NCBI GenBank assembly: GCA_963582955.1
Contig: CAUZVF010000025.1
Location: 1 to 15,832, forward strand
Direction: 5' to 3'
DNA length: 15,832 nt
From: Planctomycetota bacterium
Lineage (GTDB): Bacteria > Planctomycetota > Planctomycetia > Planctomycetales > Planctomycetaceae
The position numbers and the translations under genes were made by a program. This document shows positions 4,572-11,270 of this stretch, piece by piece. Positions within the stretch are counted from its first letter, which is position 1, and each line of letters opens with the position of its first letter. The notes beneath the pieces are model-generated. The model had not been told where the DNA came from. It saw only the letters and a program-made list of their open reading frames with translations, and did no database searches.

Positions 4572-4626
4572 CCCGGCAGTGCCGGGCCGCAAATTCACTC
4601 ACGATCCGCCGTGAGTGCCGAATTTG
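4572..4626 (-). terminator. Tandem hairpins downstream of the accessory cluster (candidate U-less terminator region)
   Basis: Hairpin A: CAAATTCACTCACG (4590-4603) pairs with CGTGAGTGCCGAATTTG (4610-4626), giving 7 + 7 bp with a 3-nt bulge. Hairpin B: CCCGG (4572-4576) pairs with CCGGG (4582-4586). Both lie 75-130 nt after the stop at 4700 and upstream of rpsB. No U-tract is present, so the call is weak. Confidence 0.3.
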
Positions 4627-4699: not shown

Positions 4700-6811
4700 C
4701 TAAAGAATCTCGACGGTTCCCGCGCTTCCATCAATTGTGATCGAGCTACCATCGACGATTCGCTGGCATGCCGACGGAACCCCAAGAACGGCTGGGACAC
4801 CAAACTCACGGCAAATGACGGCTGTGTGAGAAAGAAGGCCGCCGGTTTCCGTGATGACTCCGGCAACGCGATTAAGGACCGGCGTCCAACCGGGATCGGT
4901 AAACGGACAGACAAGTATTGCGCCGGCGGGGATTTGCGTGGCGTCTTCCACGGTACCGGCGACGCGGGCAGTGCCGCGAATTGTTCCCGGACTGGCTCCG
5001 ATTCCTTGCAGCGCGCCCGTACAAACGACTGGTTTGAATTGAAAGCGGCCGCCAATTTCGTTCGGAGCCTGGAAGTTGCGATAGCTTTCGTAGATTTCGC
5101 GATTGGGTTTCACCGCGGAGCGATCGTCTTCAAAAATCTCGCGGAACGTCATGAAGAAGATGTCGTCGCCAATGCCACGCCGCTCGGCGATTTCCAACAC
5201 ATGGCGGCGAATCAAGTAATACATCCGGCTCGACAGGTCACGTAATTCCTCACGGAGCCAAACGAAATGTCGCAAGCGATCGAGTTTGCGGTTAAATGAA
5301 CGGCGTTTCCAAATCGGTACCCGTGCGACGGCCTCCGCTCGTGCTTGTTCGTATGCCGGTCGCGGATCGGCGGCTTCTTGGCCCGATAAATTGTTGAGCA
5401 GTTGTTCGACGAATTCCCGATCCTCGTCCCAGCGCGGCTGAATGATGTCGAGCCCCAAACGGTACTGGTGTCGGAATTCGCGGAGTAATTGTGTGACGTC
5501 AGAATCGCCGCGCTCGGCCATCTCTCGCATCTTTCGGACGGGTGCCGCGTGACGGAGTGGCGGTAGCGCGGCAACCAATGATGAGTAATCAGCCTGCGGG
5601 AAAGACATCTTGAAATCCATTTTCGCGAGCGAAAGTGCGAAGATCGTTCGAAAATACGTAGATTCCGTTGCGAAGAAATCGCGTTCGATCAGTCGGAGGA
5701 ATGACGAATCAACATCGTCGTCGGCGGTCGGCTCGTACTGCCGCTCGATCTTGTCGAAATCACTTTCCAGCAGCGTCCGCGCGGACGCCGCTTGTTTCTT
5801 GAGGAATGAGCGCACTCCGAACGCGATTGGCAAAACTCGAAACAAGCTCCGCAATGTCAACGGTGTGCAGTTTCCGTCGCCTTCGTAATTGATCTGGACG
5901 CTCAAATCGTTATCGAATTCGCGTTCAACGAAACCTGGAATCTTGGCCACGCATTGTTTGACAGCTCCCAGATTCCAATACGGCCGGCCAAAAAACATCC
6001 GGGCAGCCTGAAAATCATCGGTTAACAATTTGACTTCGCGCAGGCAGCTCTTCAGAGTGGTTTCCCAAATGAAGTCATACAGCGACCACATCAGCGGCGA
6101 GCAAACAGTGCTCGACACGCCGCCATCGCGAAAGTCGGCGTTGGTCCATTCACCGACTTCGGCGAAAAATCCGATGCGAGTGATCGGCCGCGCTTGCAGG
6201 ATGTAAAACACTTCGTCTTCGATCGCGAATTCGATGTCTTGAGGTGTTCCGAAGTGCCGATGGATTTCGCGCGCCGTCGCAGCAATCTCGGACGCGTATT
6301 TCCGCAATAGCGGATCGGTGTTTGGCAGAGCCGACTTGCGGCCGGCCAACAAGTCGTCAGCGAGTCCCTCGCAGGCTTCGATGACGACTTCTTCGGCACC
6401 GGTTGTCGGATTGACCGTGAACGCCACGCCTGCCAAGACGGGCTGCACCATGCGCTGCACGATGACTTGCATTCGTAGTGATTCCGCGGCAATCCCGTTG
6501 TGCCGGCAGTATTCGATGACCGTTGGTGTTCGCAGCGATTCGTGACATTTGCGAACAGCCGCTTCAACTTCATTTGCCGACGACAGATTCAGAAAGCTGC
6601 TGAACTGGCCGGCGAACGACGTGTCTCGCCCGTCTTCGGCCGACGCCGACGAGCGGACGGCCAATGGCGTGCCGAGACGGCTGACAACTTCATCGAAGTC
6701 AGTTGGCGACACAACGAATTCAGGAACACGAAACCCAGCCGACTGCAATTCGCGCAAGACGGCGGCTTTGCCTCCAAGCCTTTGCCGATTTTCACTAACG
6801 AGTGTTGACAT
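4700..6811 (-). CDS. ATP-grasp + swivel phosphohistidine phosphotransferase (PEP-utilizing enzyme family, rifampicin-phosphotransferase/PpsA-like architecture, no PEP/pyruvate TIM-barrel domain)
   Basis: 703 aa. The ATG at 6811 is preceded by GAGAGG and overlaps the upstream gene by 17 nt. The N-terminal PPDK_N-type ATP-grasp covers about aa 1-212: RLGGKAAVLRELQSAGFRVPEFVV, VRSSASAEDGRDTSFAGQF, VIVQRMVQPVLAGVAFTVNPTTG, DIEFAIEDEVFYILQARPIT. The middle domain (about aa 213-595) starts with EWTNADFRDGG..SPLMWS, as in RPH-like proteins. The C-terminal mobile domain is GIGASPGTIRGTARV...ILVCPFTDPGWTPVLNRVAGVITETGGLLSHTAVICREFGVPAVLGV, with the catalytic His candidate at nt 4826-4828. Confidence 0.87.
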   Translation of the reverse strand: MSTLVSENRQRLGGKAAVLRELQSAGFRVPEFVVSPTDFDEVVSRLGTPLAVRSSASAEDGRDTSFAGQFSSFLNLSSANEVEAAVRKCHESLRTPTVIEYCRHNGIAAESLRMQVIVQRMVQPVLAGVAFTVNPTTGAEEVVIEACEGLADDLLAGRKSALPNTDPLLRKYASEIAATAREIHRHFGTPQDIEFAIEDEVFYILQARPITRIGFFAEVGEWTNADFRDGGVSSTVCSPLMWSLYDFIWETTLKSCLREVKLLTDDFQAARMFFGRPYWNLGAVKQCVAKIPGFVEREFDNDLSVQINYEGDGNCTPLTLRSLFRVLPIAFGVRSFLKKQAASARTLLESDFDKIERQYEPTADDDVDSSFLRLIERDFFATESTYFRTIFALSLAKMDFKMSFPQADYSSLVAALPPLRHAAPVRKMREMAERGDSDVTQLLREFRHQYRLGLDIIQPRWDEDREFVEQLLNNLSGQEAADPRPAYEQARAEAVARVPIWKRRSFNRKLDRLRHFVWLREELRDLSSRMYYLIRRHVLEIAERRGIGDDIFFMTFREIFEDDRSAVKPNREIYESYRNFQAPNEIGGRFQFKPVVCTGALQGIGASPGTIRGTARVAGTVEDATQIPAGAILVCPFTDPGWTPVLNRVAGVITETGGLLSHTAVICREFGVPAVLGVPSACQRIVDGSSITIDGSAGTVEIL

Positions 6812-9251
6812 GAGCCTCTCGTCGTTCGGCGCCCAGCATGCAAGTCTGACGATCGGCCAACTCGAACCCGTGCCGGATTGCGATGTTTGCGATACGAGAG
6901 ATCTGATCGGCTGTCAGTGATCCGGCAAATGTCGCATCTCGAACTCCTTCGAATCCCAGCAGGATGCCTTCCGCCATGCAACCAAAAGTGTATCCGTTCG
7001 GGAGCGGAAACCCGTCAATCTCTAAATCCTCACCGAACGGAAGCCGCACGATACCACCCTTGAGAATTTCGATATCGGGGCGCAATTCCGGTGTTTTAGG
7101 ATGAATGCTGCTGGGCACGGAAACGTCGCACACGATCGTGTTCTCGGCAAAGTGAGTTGGCTCCAACGGTGTTTCGACGGTACTCATCGCCGACAGCACC
7201 ACATGCGCATGGCGGATGTCGGTGATTTCGGTCGAGATCTCGGAGTTTGGAATTCTCGACGACAGCTTGTTCAACCGCGCGGCAGAACTTCGCTTGTTAC
7301 TACCGAGCAAGATCGTCCGGCGGAATTCTCGTCCGAGGAATTCGGCGCATGTGCTGCCAATGTTTCCCGCCGCACCGGCAATCGCGAGGACGGAATCTGA
7401 CCGGTTGATCCCACGCTCACGCATTGCGCGATCGATGGCTTGAATCGCCAACGCGATTGCGAAACTGTTTCCGGTCGTCAGGCCCATGTCGGTTACATTC
7501 AGACCACGGCCGTTGCGAGTCGCGATGGACGTGTATTGGCCGAGCGAGACGACGTCACAACCCAAGTGCCGGGCAACCTCGACAGCTTGCTCGATCAGTT
7601 GCTGGCATTGTCCACGCCGTCGCGATTCAATCCTGCGTTTCATCCACGAAGACGTGACTGGCAACATGATGGGATATAAGCGAACGTTTTCGTCCGTGAG
7701 CGAGCGGACATCGACGCCACTCATCACCACGGGACTTGCAAACGTACTGAATCGTTCCAAATAGTCTTTCAGTGATTCGCTCGAAAGATTATCGAATGAC
7801 GGTTCTTGGGCGACGAAGTCGTACACATCGATTCCGTGAAACAACCACGCCACGCGCTTTGGCGGAATGTCGCGTTGTTGCTCACGAAACCGGGATTCAT
7901 TCTTGGCGAACAGTTTCCAATCGGTTTGCAGCCAAGTCGTTGTTGGCTGAGCGGCATCGGCGACTGGTTCCGCGAGGAACTCGGTCAAAGCCACGGCATC
8001 GCCGTCTCGCAGACGCGTGCAGATATCTTCGAGTGCACAAATCAGCCGATCCAAGTCAGCGTCACGGATCAGTACGGACGGCTGAATCCGCAGCGTAAAC
8101 GGATCGCTGAGCGTTGCCGTTGCGCGAATCTGATGCCGATTCAACAAGTATCCCATCAACGCAAAGACAAGGTTGTCCTGAGACGACAGAAATCGCAGCA
8201 CAAAGCTGGAGGAATCGGACAGACGGCGAAATTCAATGCCGATCATCAACCCGGCTCCGCGGACATCGGCGATGATGTCGGGGAATTCTTGTCCAATAGA
8301 CCGCAGCCGGCCAAGTAGCCGATCACCTTTCGAGCGACAAGTGGCAAGAGTCGCCTCGTCGATCAATTCCAGAGTTTTCATCGCCAGGGCGCACGAAAAC
8401 TCGTCTTCCGCAAACGTGCTGGTGTGCAGCAAATCAAACGATTCGTCATAGCGGTCACGACGGATTAACAGCGCCGAAATCTTCGCGACACCTCCGCCGA
8501 GCGATTTGGCCAACAGAATGTAGTCGGGATCGACGCCCAGGTTTTGACACGCCAGGAATCGGCCCGTGCGTCCCGTCCCCGTCTGACATTCGTCAGCGAT
8601 CAACGGTACGTGGTGTTCCGCACACAACTCGGCCGCCCGCTGCAGGAAGGCAGGTTCCAGCAATCGAATGCCACCTTCTCCTTGAATGGGTTCGAAAATG
8701 AAGCCGGCGATTTCTGTCAGTCCGGCGAATGTCGCCTCCAAGTGCGCGATATCGTTGACTCGCACGCGCGCAACGTTCATTCCATTCAGCTTGAACGGTT
8801 TGCGGTAAGTTTCGTTTGCATCGAGCTGGACGGCTCCCAGCGTCTTTCCATGAAACGCGTTTTCGAGGCACACGAAGGTGTGGTTGCCGGTCTCCAGCAT
8901 CGCGTGTTTCATCGCCGCTTCGACGGCTTCGGCACCCGAGTTACCGAAGACCGCACAGAAATCACCGTTGGCACGACGCGACAACTCGGTTGCCAGTTGA
9001 CAGGCGCCTTCACGCATCGAACCCTGCACGTGAAGTGGCCGGCCGCTCGACAGAAATTGTTGTGCCTCGGCGACGAGTGCGGGATGCGAATGTCCTAGTA
9101 ACAGCGAACCGTAACCGCAGACCAGATCAAGCACTTCGGTTTCGATGCCGTTCTCATCACGATAAAAGACGAAATCACCGGCCGCGCGATGATAGACAAC
9201 GTCAAGCCGCAGTGCTTGGAGCAACTTGGATAATCGCGGGTGATGATTCAA
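6795..9251 (-). CDS. Fusion protein: class-III PLP aminotransferase (N-terminal, ~aa 1-425) + acyl-ACP reductase (AAR)-like NAD(P)H/Cys reductase domain (C-terminal, ~aa 466-800)
   Basis: 818 codons with a TTG start at 9251 (AAGGA 7 nt upstream); an alternative TTG lies at 9224. Aminotransferase motifs: GYGSLLLGHSHP, FEPIQGEGG, LIADECQTGTGRTGRF, LLAKSLGGG (PLP Lys at nt 8505-8507). The C-terminal half carries SLGQYTSI, LTTGNSF, the Rossmann motif LAIAGAAGNIGS (nt 7353-7379), FGCMAEGILLGFEG (Cys at nt 6978-6980) and IRHGFE. As I remember the sequence, these match cyanobacterial AAR along its whole length. Stop is TAG at 6795-6797. Confidence 0.85.
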   Translation of the reverse strand: MNHHPRLSKLLQALRLDVVYHRAAGDFVFYRDENGIETEVLDLVCGYGSLLLGHSHPALVAEAQQFLSSGRPLHVQGSMREGACQLATELSRRANGDFCAVFGNSGAEAVEAAMKHAMLETGNHTFVCLENAFHGKTLGAVQLDANETYRKPFKLNGMNVARVRVNDIAHLEATFAGLTEIAGFIFEPIQGEGGIRLLEPAFLQRAAELCAEHHVPLIADECQTGTGRTGRFLACQNLGVDPDYILLAKSLGGGVAKISALLIRRDRYDESFDLLHTSTFAEDEFSCALAMKTLELIDEATLATCRSKGDRLLGRLRSIGQEFPDIIADVRGAGLMIGIEFRRLSDSSSFVLRFLSSQDNLVFALMGYLLNRHQIRATATLSDPFTLRIQPSVLIRDADLDRLICALEDICTRLRDGDAVALTEFLAEPVADAAQPTTTWLQTDWKLFAKNESRFREQQRDIPPKRVAWLFHGIDVYDFVAQEPSFDNLSSESLKDYLERFSTFASPVVMSGVDVRSLTDENVRLYPIMLPVTSSWMKRRIESRRRGQCQQLIEQAVEVARHLGCDVVSLGQYTSIATRNGRGLNVTDMGLTTGNSFAIALAIQAIDRAMRERGINRSDSVLAIAGAAGNIGSTCAEFLGREFRRTILLGSNKRSSAARLNKLSSRIPNSEISTEITDIRHAHVVLSAMSTVETPLEPTHFAENTIVCDVSVPSSIHPKTPELRPDIEILKGGIVRLPFGEDLEIDGFPLPNGYTFGCMAEGILLGFEGVRDATFAGSLTADQISRIANIAIRHGFELADRQTCMLGAERREAHVNTR

Positions 9252-9443
9252 CTCGAAGTCCTTGGTCCGCTACGCAGGATCGCCGTGTTCGAGCCAGCAA
9301 CGGCTGCACTTTTTTTGGCCAGCGATCGCACTGGCGGTTGCAAGATTTCCACAATAACTTCCCATCGGATTCGGTCGCACGAGTTGGCGGTGAAAAAGCG
9401 CGCTATCCAACGAAACAAGACCCGTGGCGGTTTTCGAGCGTTT

Positions 9444-10829
9444 TTACAACGCGGAAAGAACTTCAGAGATCGTCCGATCCAAGATCGAAACGATCTCGTC
9501 GGCCTGTTTCTCGGTCAAAACCAACGGCGGTCCTAGTGCCAGCCAGTTGGGATCGAATCGCGTCAGCAGTCCGTTTTCAAGAGCACGTTGACCGATCTGG
9601 GTGCCGATTGGAAAGTCAAATTGCTCCTTCGTGTCGGGATTGCGCACGAATTCCATCCCAAGAAAGAGCCCTTTGCCGCGGATGTCGCCGATGATGCCAT
9701 GCTTGGAGCCAAGCTGCTCGATGCCTTTTCTCAGATGAGCCCCGACTTGACGCGCGTTCGCGCAAAGATCGCGTTCGACGATTTCAGCCAAGGTTGCCAA
9801 ACCGGCCGCGCTGGAAATCGGATTGCCTTCAAACGTATGCCCCTCGACGAATCCCGGATTGCTGGCCGGATCGCCCCAGAACGCATCGGCAACGTGCTGA
9901 CGGCAAACCAATGCTGACAACGGCGCGTATCCGCCACTGAGACCTTTTCCCAGACAGACCAGATCGGGGATGACGTCGAACGTCTGTGCCGCGAGAAAAT
10001 TGCCCGTTCGCCCCGCCCCCGTGATGATCTCGTCAAATACCAACAGCACATCGTATTTGTCACAGATTTCGCGCAGCATCGGCAGATATTCTTCGGGAGG
10101 ATCGATGATGCCGCCGGTGTGTCCGATCGGTTCGACCATCACGGCCGCCACGGTTTCAGGACCTTCCATTTCGATGACGTCACCGATCAAACTGGCACAT
10201 GTCAATTCGCAAGATGGATATTCTTTGCCGAACGGACATCGGTAACACGTCGGCGGAAACACATGCACGAATCCGCCAGCCAGCGGTTCGTTGACGGCGC
10301 GGCGCGACGCCAGACCGCCGGCCGACAGCGAACCCATCGTGGAGCCATGCCAAGACTGATACCGCGAGACGATTTTGTATTTCGTCGCCTGACCCTGCAG
10401 CTTGAAGTACTGGCGAGCCATTTTGATCGCGGCCTCGGTGGCTTCCGAACCGCCGGACAAGAGTTTGACGGCGTTCAAATCTGCAGGAGCCAACTCGGCG
10501 ATGCGGTTGGCCAGTTGCACGGCCAGCGGATTGGTTCCGTGCATTACTGGAGAAAAACTGAGCACGTCCATTTGTCGCTTGATCGACTCGATCACGCGGC
10601 GGTTGTTGTGTCCGACGCTGACCACATAGATGCCGGAAAGTGCATCAAGATACTGCTTTCCGTTGACGTCCCAATAATGGACGCCGTCGGCTCGCGACAT
10701 GATCAGTGGATTTTTCACAAAGTCGGTCATCTGCGACCGGACGAATATCTTCCGCAGGAATTGCTCTTCCGTCGATTGTGCTTCCGAAATTGTCACGTTC
10801 GTGGTTTCTTCAATCGTGTGTTGATCCAT
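9444..10829 (-). CDS. Class-III aminotransferase (omega-amine:pyruvate/oxoacid transaminase-like, aspartate aminotransferase fold type I)
   Basis: 461 aa; the ATG at 10829 is preceded by AGGAAA. Motifs: YLDALSGIYVVSVGHNN, LLSGGSEATEAAIKMAR, MVEPIGHTGGII, LLVFDEIITGAGRTGNF, PDLVCLGKGLSGGYAPLSA (PLP Lys at nt 9945-9947), HTFEGNPIS. Confidence 0.9.
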   Translation of the reverse strand: MDQHTIEETTNVTISEAQSTEEQFLRKIFVRSQMTDFVKNPLIMSRADGVHYWDVNGKQYLDALSGIYVVSVGHNNRRVIESIKRQMDVLSFSPVMHGTNPLAVQLANRIAELAPADLNAVKLLSGGSEATEAAIKMARQYFKLQGQATKYKIVSRYQSWHGSTMGSLSAGGLASRRAVNEPLAGGFVHVFPPTCYRCPFGKEYPSCELTCASLIGDVIEMEGPETVAAVMVEPIGHTGGIIDPPEEYLPMLREICDKYDVLLVFDEIITGAGRTGNFLAAQTFDVIPDLVCLGKGLSGGYAPLSALVCRQHVADAFWGDPASNPGFVEGHTFEGNPISSAAGLATLAEIVERDLCANARQVGAHLRKGIEQLGSKHGIIGDIRGKGLFLGMEFVRNPDTKEQFDFPIGTQIGQRALENGLLTRFDPNWLALGPPLVLTEKQADEIVSILDRTISEVLSAL

Positions 10830-10856
10830 GAGTTTTTTCCTGGGCGCCTTTCAATT

Positions 10857-11270
10857 TCATAGTGTCACGCCACGCCATTCTTCTTTGTATTCCGTAACAT
10901 CAACGACGTTGCCATCGGGGTCCAACACTTTGAACGACCGGCGCGGCGTCCAATCGTCACCAATCTCGTTTCGCGACTTGACGTCGTCTTTCGAGAACTC
11001 AGCTCCCCAATCGGACAATCGCTGCCAACATTCTTTCAAGTCATCGACGATGACTCCAAAATGAATGTACTCGTTGCCTTCGTCGAGGACTGGCCGCGAG
11101 CAATCATCGGGCTGCTGCAGCAACGTAATGTTGTTCACACCGTCGCTCAGGTCGAGACCGAGTCCGCTCGGCCGGTAGCCGATGAACTTCCAATCGAAAG
11201 CGGTTTCGTAAAATGTGCGGGACTTTTCCATGTCCATGCACCGGATTGCCAGATGTCGTAGTGAAGCCAT
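10857..11270 (-). CDS. VOC (glyoxalase I / bleomycin-resistance / dioxygenase fold) family protein
   Basis: 137 aa; the ATG at 11270 is preceded by GGAG 7 nt upstream. Typical VOC pattern: LRHLAIRCMDMEKSRTFYETAFDWKF at the N-terminus, EYIHFGVIVDDL in the middle, FKVLDPDGNVVDVTE near the C-terminus. Only 27 nt separate it from the downstream aminotransferase gene. Confidence 0.82.
   Translation of the reverse strand: MASLRHLAIRCMDMEKSRTFYETAFDWKFIGYRPSGLGLDLSDGVNNITLLQQPDDCSRPVLDEGNEYIHFGVIVDDLKECWQRLSDWGAEFSKDDVKSRNEIGDDWTPRRSFKVLDPDGNVVDVTEYKEEWRGVTL

Follow-up and report, generated by a model that had tools for sequence, protein, structure and literature searches.

We analyzed a window of 15,832 nucleotides (nt), the whole stretch of DNA considered here, from contig CAUZVF010000025.1 (assembly GCA_963582955.1) of a Planctomycetota bacterium, in which the features of interest span positions 4700-11270. 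Four open reading frames (ORFs), all on the minus strand, follow one another in this region: a VOC-fold protein of 137 amino acids (aa; 10857-11270), a stand-alone class-III transaminase of 461 aa (9444-10829), a protein of 818 aa with a TTG start that joins a transaminase to a thioester reductase (6795-9251; hereafter the TA-TR fusion), and a dikinase-type phosphotransferase of the Rph/PigC family with 703 aa (4700-6811; hereafter the dikinase). The junctions are, in the same order, 27 nt, 192 nt and a 17-nt overlap between the end of the fusion gene and the start of the dikinase gene; 314 nt separate the VOC gene from a divergent protease gene, and rpsB lies 206 nt from the last gene. A prior reading of the window from its letters alone (the sequence-only reading) had placed the ORFs, their junctions and the 314-nt divergent region exactly so, and had also predicted exactly the Pfam families that were returned for the four proteins, namely Glyoxalase (PF00903), Aminotran_3 (PF00202, twice), PPDK_N (PF01326) and PEP-utilizers (PF00391). 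Its headline, an undescribed four-gene pathway that would recreate the logic of activation, reduction and amination with non-homologous enzymes, does not survive; what remains is the fusion-dikinase pair and a large cluster that surrounds it in other genomes.

This outcome derives from a comparison of 46 loci carrying an orthologous fusion at 46-70% identity, drawn from assemblies and metagenomes and including a few duplicate contigs. A first contig search with the full-length alignment responded to generic class-III motifs, with only about 10 of 80 loci being fusions, and was redone on metagenomes with an alignment of the reductase domain. In 34 of the 40 orthologous loci that extend at least 600 nt beyond the fusion gene, the next gene downstream is a dikinase gene, and an overlap of 17-20 nt between the two recurs where the genes have been called (L001, L003, L005, L006, L088 and L133). 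Two orthologous fusions, at L104 and L106, have no dikinase within 10 kb. The named sources of these loci are Horticoccus (Verrucomicrobiota), Planctomycetaceae and metagenome-assembled genomes of Planctomycetota, and the names of homologous proteins additionally cite Acidobacteriota and Deltaproteobacteria. That the fusion and the dikinase form a real two-gene unit, a translationally coupled pair, is hence strongly supported. The four genes, on the other hand, are not a conserved unit, because a close relative of the VOC protein or of the stand-alone transaminase occurs at none of the 46 fusion loci; the sequence-only reading had itself named such a lack of synteny as an outcome that would tell against it. 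Furthermore, a sister contig (L130) has the VOC and transaminase genes without the pair. The four genes are thus two unrelated, co-directional modules, with the VOC protein and the second transaminase being bystanders of the pair, and the case cautions against annotating co-directional neighbors as one pathway without a check of synteny.

Domain architecture of the fusion protein and the dikinase

The N-terminal part of the fusion is a class-III transaminase domain dependent on pyridoxal phosphate (PLP; aa 1-430, positions 7962-9251, minus strand), over which Aminotran_3 spans residues 18-355 (E=1.3e-68). Its PLP-binding Lys249 is encoded at 8505-8507, as checked by codon, and Asp220 lies within the motif IADECQTG. 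No Pfam model matches the C-terminal 360 or so residues (~455-818), which form the second domain (aa 455-818, positions 6798-7889). This part, nevertheless, aligns over ~300 residues with the cyanobacterial acyl-ACP (acyl carrier protein) reductase 6jzq (AAR; E=1.6e-14), with FGCMAEGILLGFEG of the fusion (FGCMAEG) falling on the catalytic-Cys motif FACFAEAMLLEFEG of AAR. The corresponding Cys758 is encoded at 6978-6980, and a candidate dinucleotide-binding motif, GAAGNIG (residues 626-632), at 7356-7376 (codons checked). Lys249, Asp220, the three glycines of the GxxGxxG pattern (Gly626, Gly629 and Gly632) and Cys758 are invariant in an alignment of 26 fusion homologues, such that the AAR-like reductase and the intact PLP site proposed from sequence are both borne out; the stand-alone transaminase likewise retains its PLP lysine, Lys295. 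On these grounds the protein is of the TamH/PigE type in its domains and motifs, with a PLP transaminase bearing the catalytic Lys and an AAR-like domain bearing the GxxGxxG and Cys motifs. The top NCBIfam model is PigE (NF053554), which scores 370 bits in two stretches against a cut-off of 850, and the sequence matches in the PDB are CrmG, PigE and AAR, of which the PigE entry 4ppm matches both halves. The AlphaFold2 (AF2) model has a mean pLDDT of 84.8, and its N-terminal half is nearest to CrmG, PigE and YgjG in fold; the top 50 Foldseek matches of the whole model are all transaminases, and the assignment of the reductase half rests on the sequence match to 6jzq.

More than 120 full-length homologues of the fusion were recovered at 53-70% identity. 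Counted as representatives of 50%-identity clusters, among 1.84 billion searched, the reductase domain alone has 371 matches at E<=1e-30 and 1580 at E<=1e-10, and in most of them it stands at the C-terminus of proteins of 820-1000 aa. The TA-TR architecture is therefore common, not unique. Distant full-length fusions with 30-38% identity occur in Bacillota (L011, L012, L014), Streptomyces (L015, L030) and a member of Pyrinomonadaceae (L010), none with a dikinase within 10 kb. The AAR-like domain also stands at the very C-terminal end of giant proteins of 1,765-3,038 aa (P0428, P0463, P0466, P0468, P0478, P0507), which are presumably megasynthases that release their products by reduction or amination. 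The only possible start of the fusion ORF in the window is the TTG codon (9249-9251), which has AAGGA 7 nt upstream, and the resulting N-terminus is ~11-20 residues shorter than in most homologues (838 aa).

The dikinase has Pfam matches to PPDK_N and PEP-utilizers only (the latter with E=4.6e-25), apart from a weak match of its middle region to Rph_4th, and can be divided into three parts on the minus strand. A shortened ATP-grasp domain (aa 1-225, positions 6137-6811) bears the motifs GGK15, VRSS53-55, PQDIEF190-195 and LQARPIT205-211, and is followed by a middle domain that is mostly helical in the AF2 secondary structure and presumed to bind the substrate (aa 226-595, positions 5027-6136), and by a C-terminal phosphohistidine swivel domain (aa 596-703, positions 4703-5026), whose His662 is encoded at 4826-4828 (codon checked). 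The four ATP-grasp motifs are invariant in the family alignments, longer paralogues included, as are Lys15, Arg53 and His662 individually. The nearest PDB sequence is the rifampin phosphotransferase Rph of Listeria (5fbs, E=2e-50), on which GGLLSHTAVICREFG of the dikinase (GGLLSH662TAV) aligns with GGLMTHGAVIAREYG at the swivel histidine, in agreement with the swivel His that the sequence-only reading had recognized. Consistent with this, a search with the AF2 model (pLDDT 84.7) finds Rph along the entire chain (E=1e-28, TM-score ~0.5), the structural matches also include PPDK, PEP synthase and HpeI, and in the whole-chain matches the middle domain superposes with the rifampin-binding region of Rph. 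Relative to Rph and the long paralogues, ~65 N-terminal residues and an insert of ~40 aa are missing from the ATP-grasp domain, but the nucleotide- and phosphate-binding motifs are kept. The dikinase of L088, a 70%-identical relative, carries a 31-aa insertion after residue 32.

Against the NCBIfam models for PEP synthase-like proteins, Rph, RedH and PigC the dikinase scores 200-255 bits and misses every cut-off (PigC, 204.5 against 1300; RedH, 208.4 against 1350; Rph, 246 against 999). We considered and rejected a PEP synthase or PPDK: the swivel domain, which finishes at aa 703, is the last one of the chain, PF02896 is not matched and the PEP synthase models stay below cut-off, so that a protein without the PEP/pyruvate TIM barrel is neither of these enzymes. 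A PPDK_N ATP-grasp with a C-terminal swivel His and no TIM barrel is, rather, the architecture of PigC, TamQ and RedH.

Several of these relatives have been studied experimentally. PtTamH, from the tambjamine YP1 pathway of Pseudoalteromonas tunicata, converts a TamA-bound C12 acyl-ACP to the aldehyde and then to dodecylamine, and refuses free acyl-CoA (PMC9594044). PigE was re-described in 2021 as an N-terminal AAR-like thioester reductase fused to a class-III transaminase, which takes a thioester to the aldehyde and then transaminates it, with activity seen in cell lysates; the authors invoke aldehyde channeling as between GluTR and GSAM (PMC8341465). PigC and TamQ catalyze condensations that depend on ATP, and have an ATP-binding domain at the N-terminus and a phosphotransfer domain at the C-terminus (PMC6667630). 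The claim that no characterized pathway has such a gene set had thus overlooked prodigiosin and tambjamine, with their PigE and TamH fusions and their PigC and TamQ dikinases.

Like TamH, the fusion is a single chain with an N-terminal class-III transaminase and a C-terminal AAR-like reductase with GxxGxxG and the catalytic Cys, although TamH has 941 aa against the 818 aa seen here. Like the extended clusters described below, the TamH pathway includes an activator of the AMP-binding type (TamA) and a condensing enzyme with a PPDK_N domain (TamQ); however, the ligases of these clusters, unlike TamA, carry no fused ACP, and in place of genes for 4-methoxy-2,2'-bipyrrole-5-carbaldehyde (MBC) the context here is of UbiA, BtaA-like and sulfotransferase proteins. 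PigE, from the 2-methyl-3-n-amylpyrrole (MAP) branch of prodigiosin synthesis in Serratia, shares the two domains as well as being the top NCBIfam model and matching both halves in 4ppm, but its domain order is reversed, with the reductase N-terminal, the fusion lies well below its equivalog cut-off, and its substrate is a keto-thioester that cyclizes to a dihydropyrrole. The C-terminal domain agrees with AAR (6jzq/6jzu) in fold and catalytic-Cys motif, yet AAR is a stand-alone enzyme of 341 aa that passes its aldehyde to ADO for alkane formation, whereas the domain considered here is joined to a transaminase. The dikinase in turn shares with PigC, TamQ and RedH the domain pair, the lack of a TIM barrel and the association, within one pathway, with a TA-TR fusion; it differs in scoring ~205 bits where PigC and RedH demand 1300-1350, in being ~180 aa shorter and in the absence of an MBC pathway, and is no equivalog of either. 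To Rph (5fbs/5hv1) it is closer than to any other solved protein, by sequence as well as by predicted fold, and the two share the three-domain layout and the aligned swivel His, but the identity is ~21%, the ATP-grasp is trimmed, the equivalog score falls far short, and its synteny points to biosynthesis, not resistance. ArgB/ArgC/ArgD, Ask/Asd/EctB and GluTR/GSAM resemble the scheme in leading from an activated acyl group through an aldehyde to class-III amination; however, their activating and reducing enzymes are non-homologous and handle acyl phosphates or a tRNA ester, not thioesters.

Taken together, the pair seems by its sequence to resemble TamH with TamQ, or PigE with PigC, in its working, while failing their equivalogs on score, on domain order (PigE) and on pathway context. 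Homologues of PigA/G/H/I/J, or more generally MBC/bipyrrole genes for a prolyl-PCP (peptidyl carrier protein) dehydrogenase, a ketosynthase and a PCP, were found neither in the window nor at any of ~55 related loci, and hence none of these is a prodiginine or tambjamine cluster.

The wider cluster around the pair

We then considered the genes that adjoin the pair elsewhere. A recurrent cluster of up to 10-11 genes surrounds it at several loci (L001, L006, L091, L094, L098, L107, L121; for example L006:3809-19056), with a typical order of a sulfotransferase, a P450, in some cases an MFS protein, a UbiA-like transferase, a long dikinase of ~900 aa, the fusion, the short dikinase, a DUF4440 (SnoaL-like) protein, a DUF3419 protein of the BtaA family, a tandem GNAT protein and a fatty-acid ligase of the PRK09274/OleC type. 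At L001 and L006 the four genes from the UbiA-like one through the short dikinase overlap one another. Across 24 non-redundant loci of at least 12 kb each, the short dikinase is present in 21 and a second dikinase in 17; the UbiA-like, DUF3419, DUF4440 and P450 genes each occur in 12, the tandem GNAT in 11, and the fatty-acid ligase and the sulfotransferase in 10 each. Searches of the literature for DUF3419, for PigC/TamQ-like clusters, for PEP synthase together with UbiA and sulfotransferase, and for fatty-amine pathways retrieved no description of this extended cluster.

Two variants stand beside the typical form, one with a phosphatidylserine-decarboxylase-like protein and a fatty-acid desaturase (L002, L013, L101), and one with a radical-SAM/SPASM protein (L005, L118, L133), to which the closest relatives of the pair in the window (L005 and L133) belong. 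In the latter the accessory genes lie directly downstream of the pair (L005:8420-16108, L133:3016-5854, L118:9786-12463) and code for the SPASM protein, two proteins without Pfam matches (~366 and ~134 aa), a tandem GNAT, a fatty-acid ligase, a UbiA-like transferase and a long dikinase. The window has rpsB in the place of these genes. There, as at L088 and L009, the pair stands alone, adjoined by rpsB, a PlsC-like acyltransferase or ordinary planctomycete genes. At L088 the gene for the PlsC-type acyltransferase (PF01553; 5170-5769, minus strand), with the HX4D motif NHTSTLD, converges on the pair, a neighbor possibly indicative of lipid metabolism. The record of Horticoccus sp. 23ND18S-11 (L008) bears no label as a metagenome-assembled genome and has the pair with DUF4440 and DUF3419 genes downstream, so that experiments may be possible.

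Proposed function and its alternatives

Based on the catalytic sites, which are intact by sequence in all domains of the pair, on the studied homologues, on synteny and on the structural models, we propose as the reading with the better prospects that the two modules are functionally distinct, the pair making an amine from an acyl thioester while its dikinase phosphorylates an acceptor, and the VOC protein and the omega-transaminase constituting the other module. By analogy with TamH, PigE and AAR, Cys758 would take up the acyl group of a thioester (most likely of a fatty acyl-ACP or -CoA), NAD(P)H bound at GAAGNIG would reduce it to the aldehyde, and the N-terminal PLP domain, through Lys249, would convert the aldehyde to a primary amine. 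The fatty-amine route entertained in the sequence-only reading is, accordingly, the one of its proposals best supported by experiment on a homologue, namely TamH (PMC9594044). If the dikinase works as has been shown for Rph, its ATP-grasp domain would load a phosphoryl group from ATP on His662 with release of AMP and Pi, and the phosphohistidine (His~P) would pass it on to an oxygen of an acceptor bound by the helical middle domain. That oxygen might belong to a hydroxyl of the amine product, as in Rph-like phosphorylation, or to a carbonyl partner that the amine would displace, as in the condensations of PigC and TamQ. We would class the pair as a fatty-amine module of the TamH type that is coupled to a swivel-His dikinase and recruited to an uncharacterized, phylogenetically broad family of clusters, and in light of its embedding, in many other genomes, in the recurrent cluster of up to 10-11 genes its product is probably a modified amine-bearing lipid or alkaloid.

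Several points weigh against this proposal. Since the window lacks genes for a fatty-acid ligase or a carrier protein, the supply of a thioester has to be presumed. Compared with that of Rph, the ATP-grasp domain is shortened, and with its motifs kept the dikinase activity is only predicted. The assignment for this subfamily rests on homologues, and the sequence does not specify which acyl group is used or where the phosphoryl group goes. Finally, the pair may be co-transcribed with the VOC-transaminase module, as all four genes point the same way with no recognizable terminator in the 192 nt between the modules.

The chief alternative within the pair concerns the order of events. The dikinase could act first, with His~P phosphorylating a free carboxylate and Cys758 capturing the acyl phosphate ahead of reduction and transamination, in a non-homologous version of ArgB/ArgC/ArgD or Ask/Asd/EctB. 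Such carboxylate activation, a parallel drawn in the sequence-only reading, is conceivable but disfavored, and we judge it unlikely. It would sit well with the tight translational coupling of the two genes and with the stand-alone pairs (the window, L088 and L009), which have no fatty-acid ligase nearby, and transfer of a phosphoryl group from His~P to a carboxylate has a chemical precedent in succinyl-CoA synthetase; we know, however, of no PPDK_N/swivel-His enzyme with a carboxylate acceptor, the known acceptors of swivel-His enzymes being an enolate, a phenol, the hydroxyls of glucan and rifampin, and the MBC carbonyl. Instead, action of the dikinase on the amine product or on a coupling partner is favored, because the orthologous fusions at L104 and L106 stand without a dikinase, and because the fatty-acid ligase of the big clusters co-occurs with the dikinase rather than being replaced by it. 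AAR, TamH and PigE, moreover, all use thioesters (PMC9594044, PMC8341465).

A different possibility is that all four genes are one operon serving one pathway in the lineage of the window, with the VOC protein and the second transaminase acting on the same metabolite, for instance toward a diamine. The shared strand, the gaps of 27 and 192 nt without a detectable terminator between, and the intact site (Lys295) of a second omega-transaminase that could in principle aminate a second carbonyl would all fit it. We nonetheless consider it quite improbable, given that neither gene accompanies any of the 46 orthologous fusions, that L130 holds both without the pair, and that the transaminase is far better conserved than the fusion and is found in unrelated contexts. 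Still further from likely is that the pair consists of true orthologues of TamH and TamQ or of PigE and PigC producing a tambjamine- or prodiginine-type bipyrrole alkaloid; the models of PigE for the fusion and of PigC and RedH for the dikinase do match, but at 370 against 850, 204 against 1300 and 208 against 1350 bits they fall far under the equivalog cut-offs, and the MBC-pathway genes are missing from the window and all ~55 related loci. Equally hard to credit is an Rph-like kinase that inactivates antibiotics or other xenobiotics and is functionally unrelated to the fusion. Rifampin phosphotransferase is the nearest solved relative, and some JGI records call the homologues "rifampicin phosphotransferase", yet the Rph equivalog score is 246 against 999, and synteny with the fusion across phyla, coupled by an overlap, is unexpected for a resistance gene.

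Returning to the TamH-type amine module with its dikinase, we suggest tentatively, and with some reserve, that the pair is the core of a widespread undescribed amine-lipid or alkaloid pathway in Planctomycetota, Verrucomicrobiota, Acidobacteriota and relatives, in which the dikinase would contribute a chemistry new to lipid or natural-product biosynthesis. This could be an activation of oxygen driven by His~P for C-N bond formation outside the bipyrrole pigments, or else a stepwise phosphorylation that supplies the UbiA-like transferase with its donor, and the finishing of the product would then fall to the BtaA-like, tandem-GNAT, P450 and sulfotransferase enzymes. There is interest in TamH-type fusions as single enzymes that lead from fatty acids to fatty amines, and their architecture is evidently not confined to pigment pathways but belongs to a family of hundreds of representatives, in which the subfamily of the window almost always has the fusion translationally coupled to an Rph/PigC-type dikinase. 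Once worked out, the acceptor of this dikinase would extend swivel-His chemistry and probably also reveal new amine-containing lipids or metabolites in environmentally abundant but poorly studied phyla.

The transaminase-VOC module and the flanking sequence

In the window, the four genes are flanked on one side by rpsB-tsf-pyrH and ispG and on the other by genes for a trypsin-like protease and an AAA ATPase. No mobile-element genes were found in it, and the repeats around the fusion-dikinase pair are short chance matches, in keeping with the earlier statement that no mobile elements flank the genes. At third codon positions the GC content (GC3) is 0.62 in the pair, the same as in its neighbors, and neither GC nor GC3 shows a foreign composition or hints at recent transfer. 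Rfam and tRNA scans of the window returned no matches. The tandem hairpins reported ahead of rpsB are present downstream of position 4700, as an 8-bp stem at 4596-4617 and as cccggc-act-gccggg, but have no T tract and do not exceed the shuffled background. Indeed, promoter- and terminator-like sites across the window are no more numerous than in shuffled sequence, and such scans are thus uninformative on transcription units. The 192-nt spacer between the modules (9252-9443, minus strand) is a possible separate promoter region, in which no consensus promoter or terminator was detected and whose alignment with the regions upstream of orthologous fusion genes yields no conserved element.

The stand-alone class-III omega-transaminase (9444-10829, minus strand; PLP Lys295 at 9945-9947) matches Aminotran_3 over its full length and has 6s54 as its nearest PDB entry (E=4e-100). 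Relatives in Pirellulaceae, Planctomycetaceae and Gemmataceae (more than 120 clusters) share 71-90% identity with it, a conservation far in excess of that of the fusion (<=70%), and 73-75%-identical relatives have unrelated neighbors, namely a peptidase M20 and amidohydrolases at L131 and a shikimate dehydrogenase at L132; it may be a lineage-wide housekeeping enzyme. The automatic JGI name BioA was rejected at 304 bits against a cut-off of 405. The small single-domain VOC/glyoxalase-fold protein (10857-11270, minus strand; PF00903, E=2.4e-12) reaches no NCBIfam cut-off, and glyoxalase I was rejected at 32 bits against 165.

Among the loci examined the VOC gene stands beside the transaminase only in the window and in L130 and is absent from all others. 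L130 is ~83% identical to the window and has, in the same order, the AAA ATPase (88%), the protease (72%), the VOC protein (92%) and the transaminase (90%), with synteny breaking exactly at the 192-nt spacer. After the transaminase, where fusion and dikinase are both absent, follows an opposite-strand protein of 249 aa (9464-10213), which carries a CTDCH motif at its C-terminus, a CxxCH pattern like those that bind haem.

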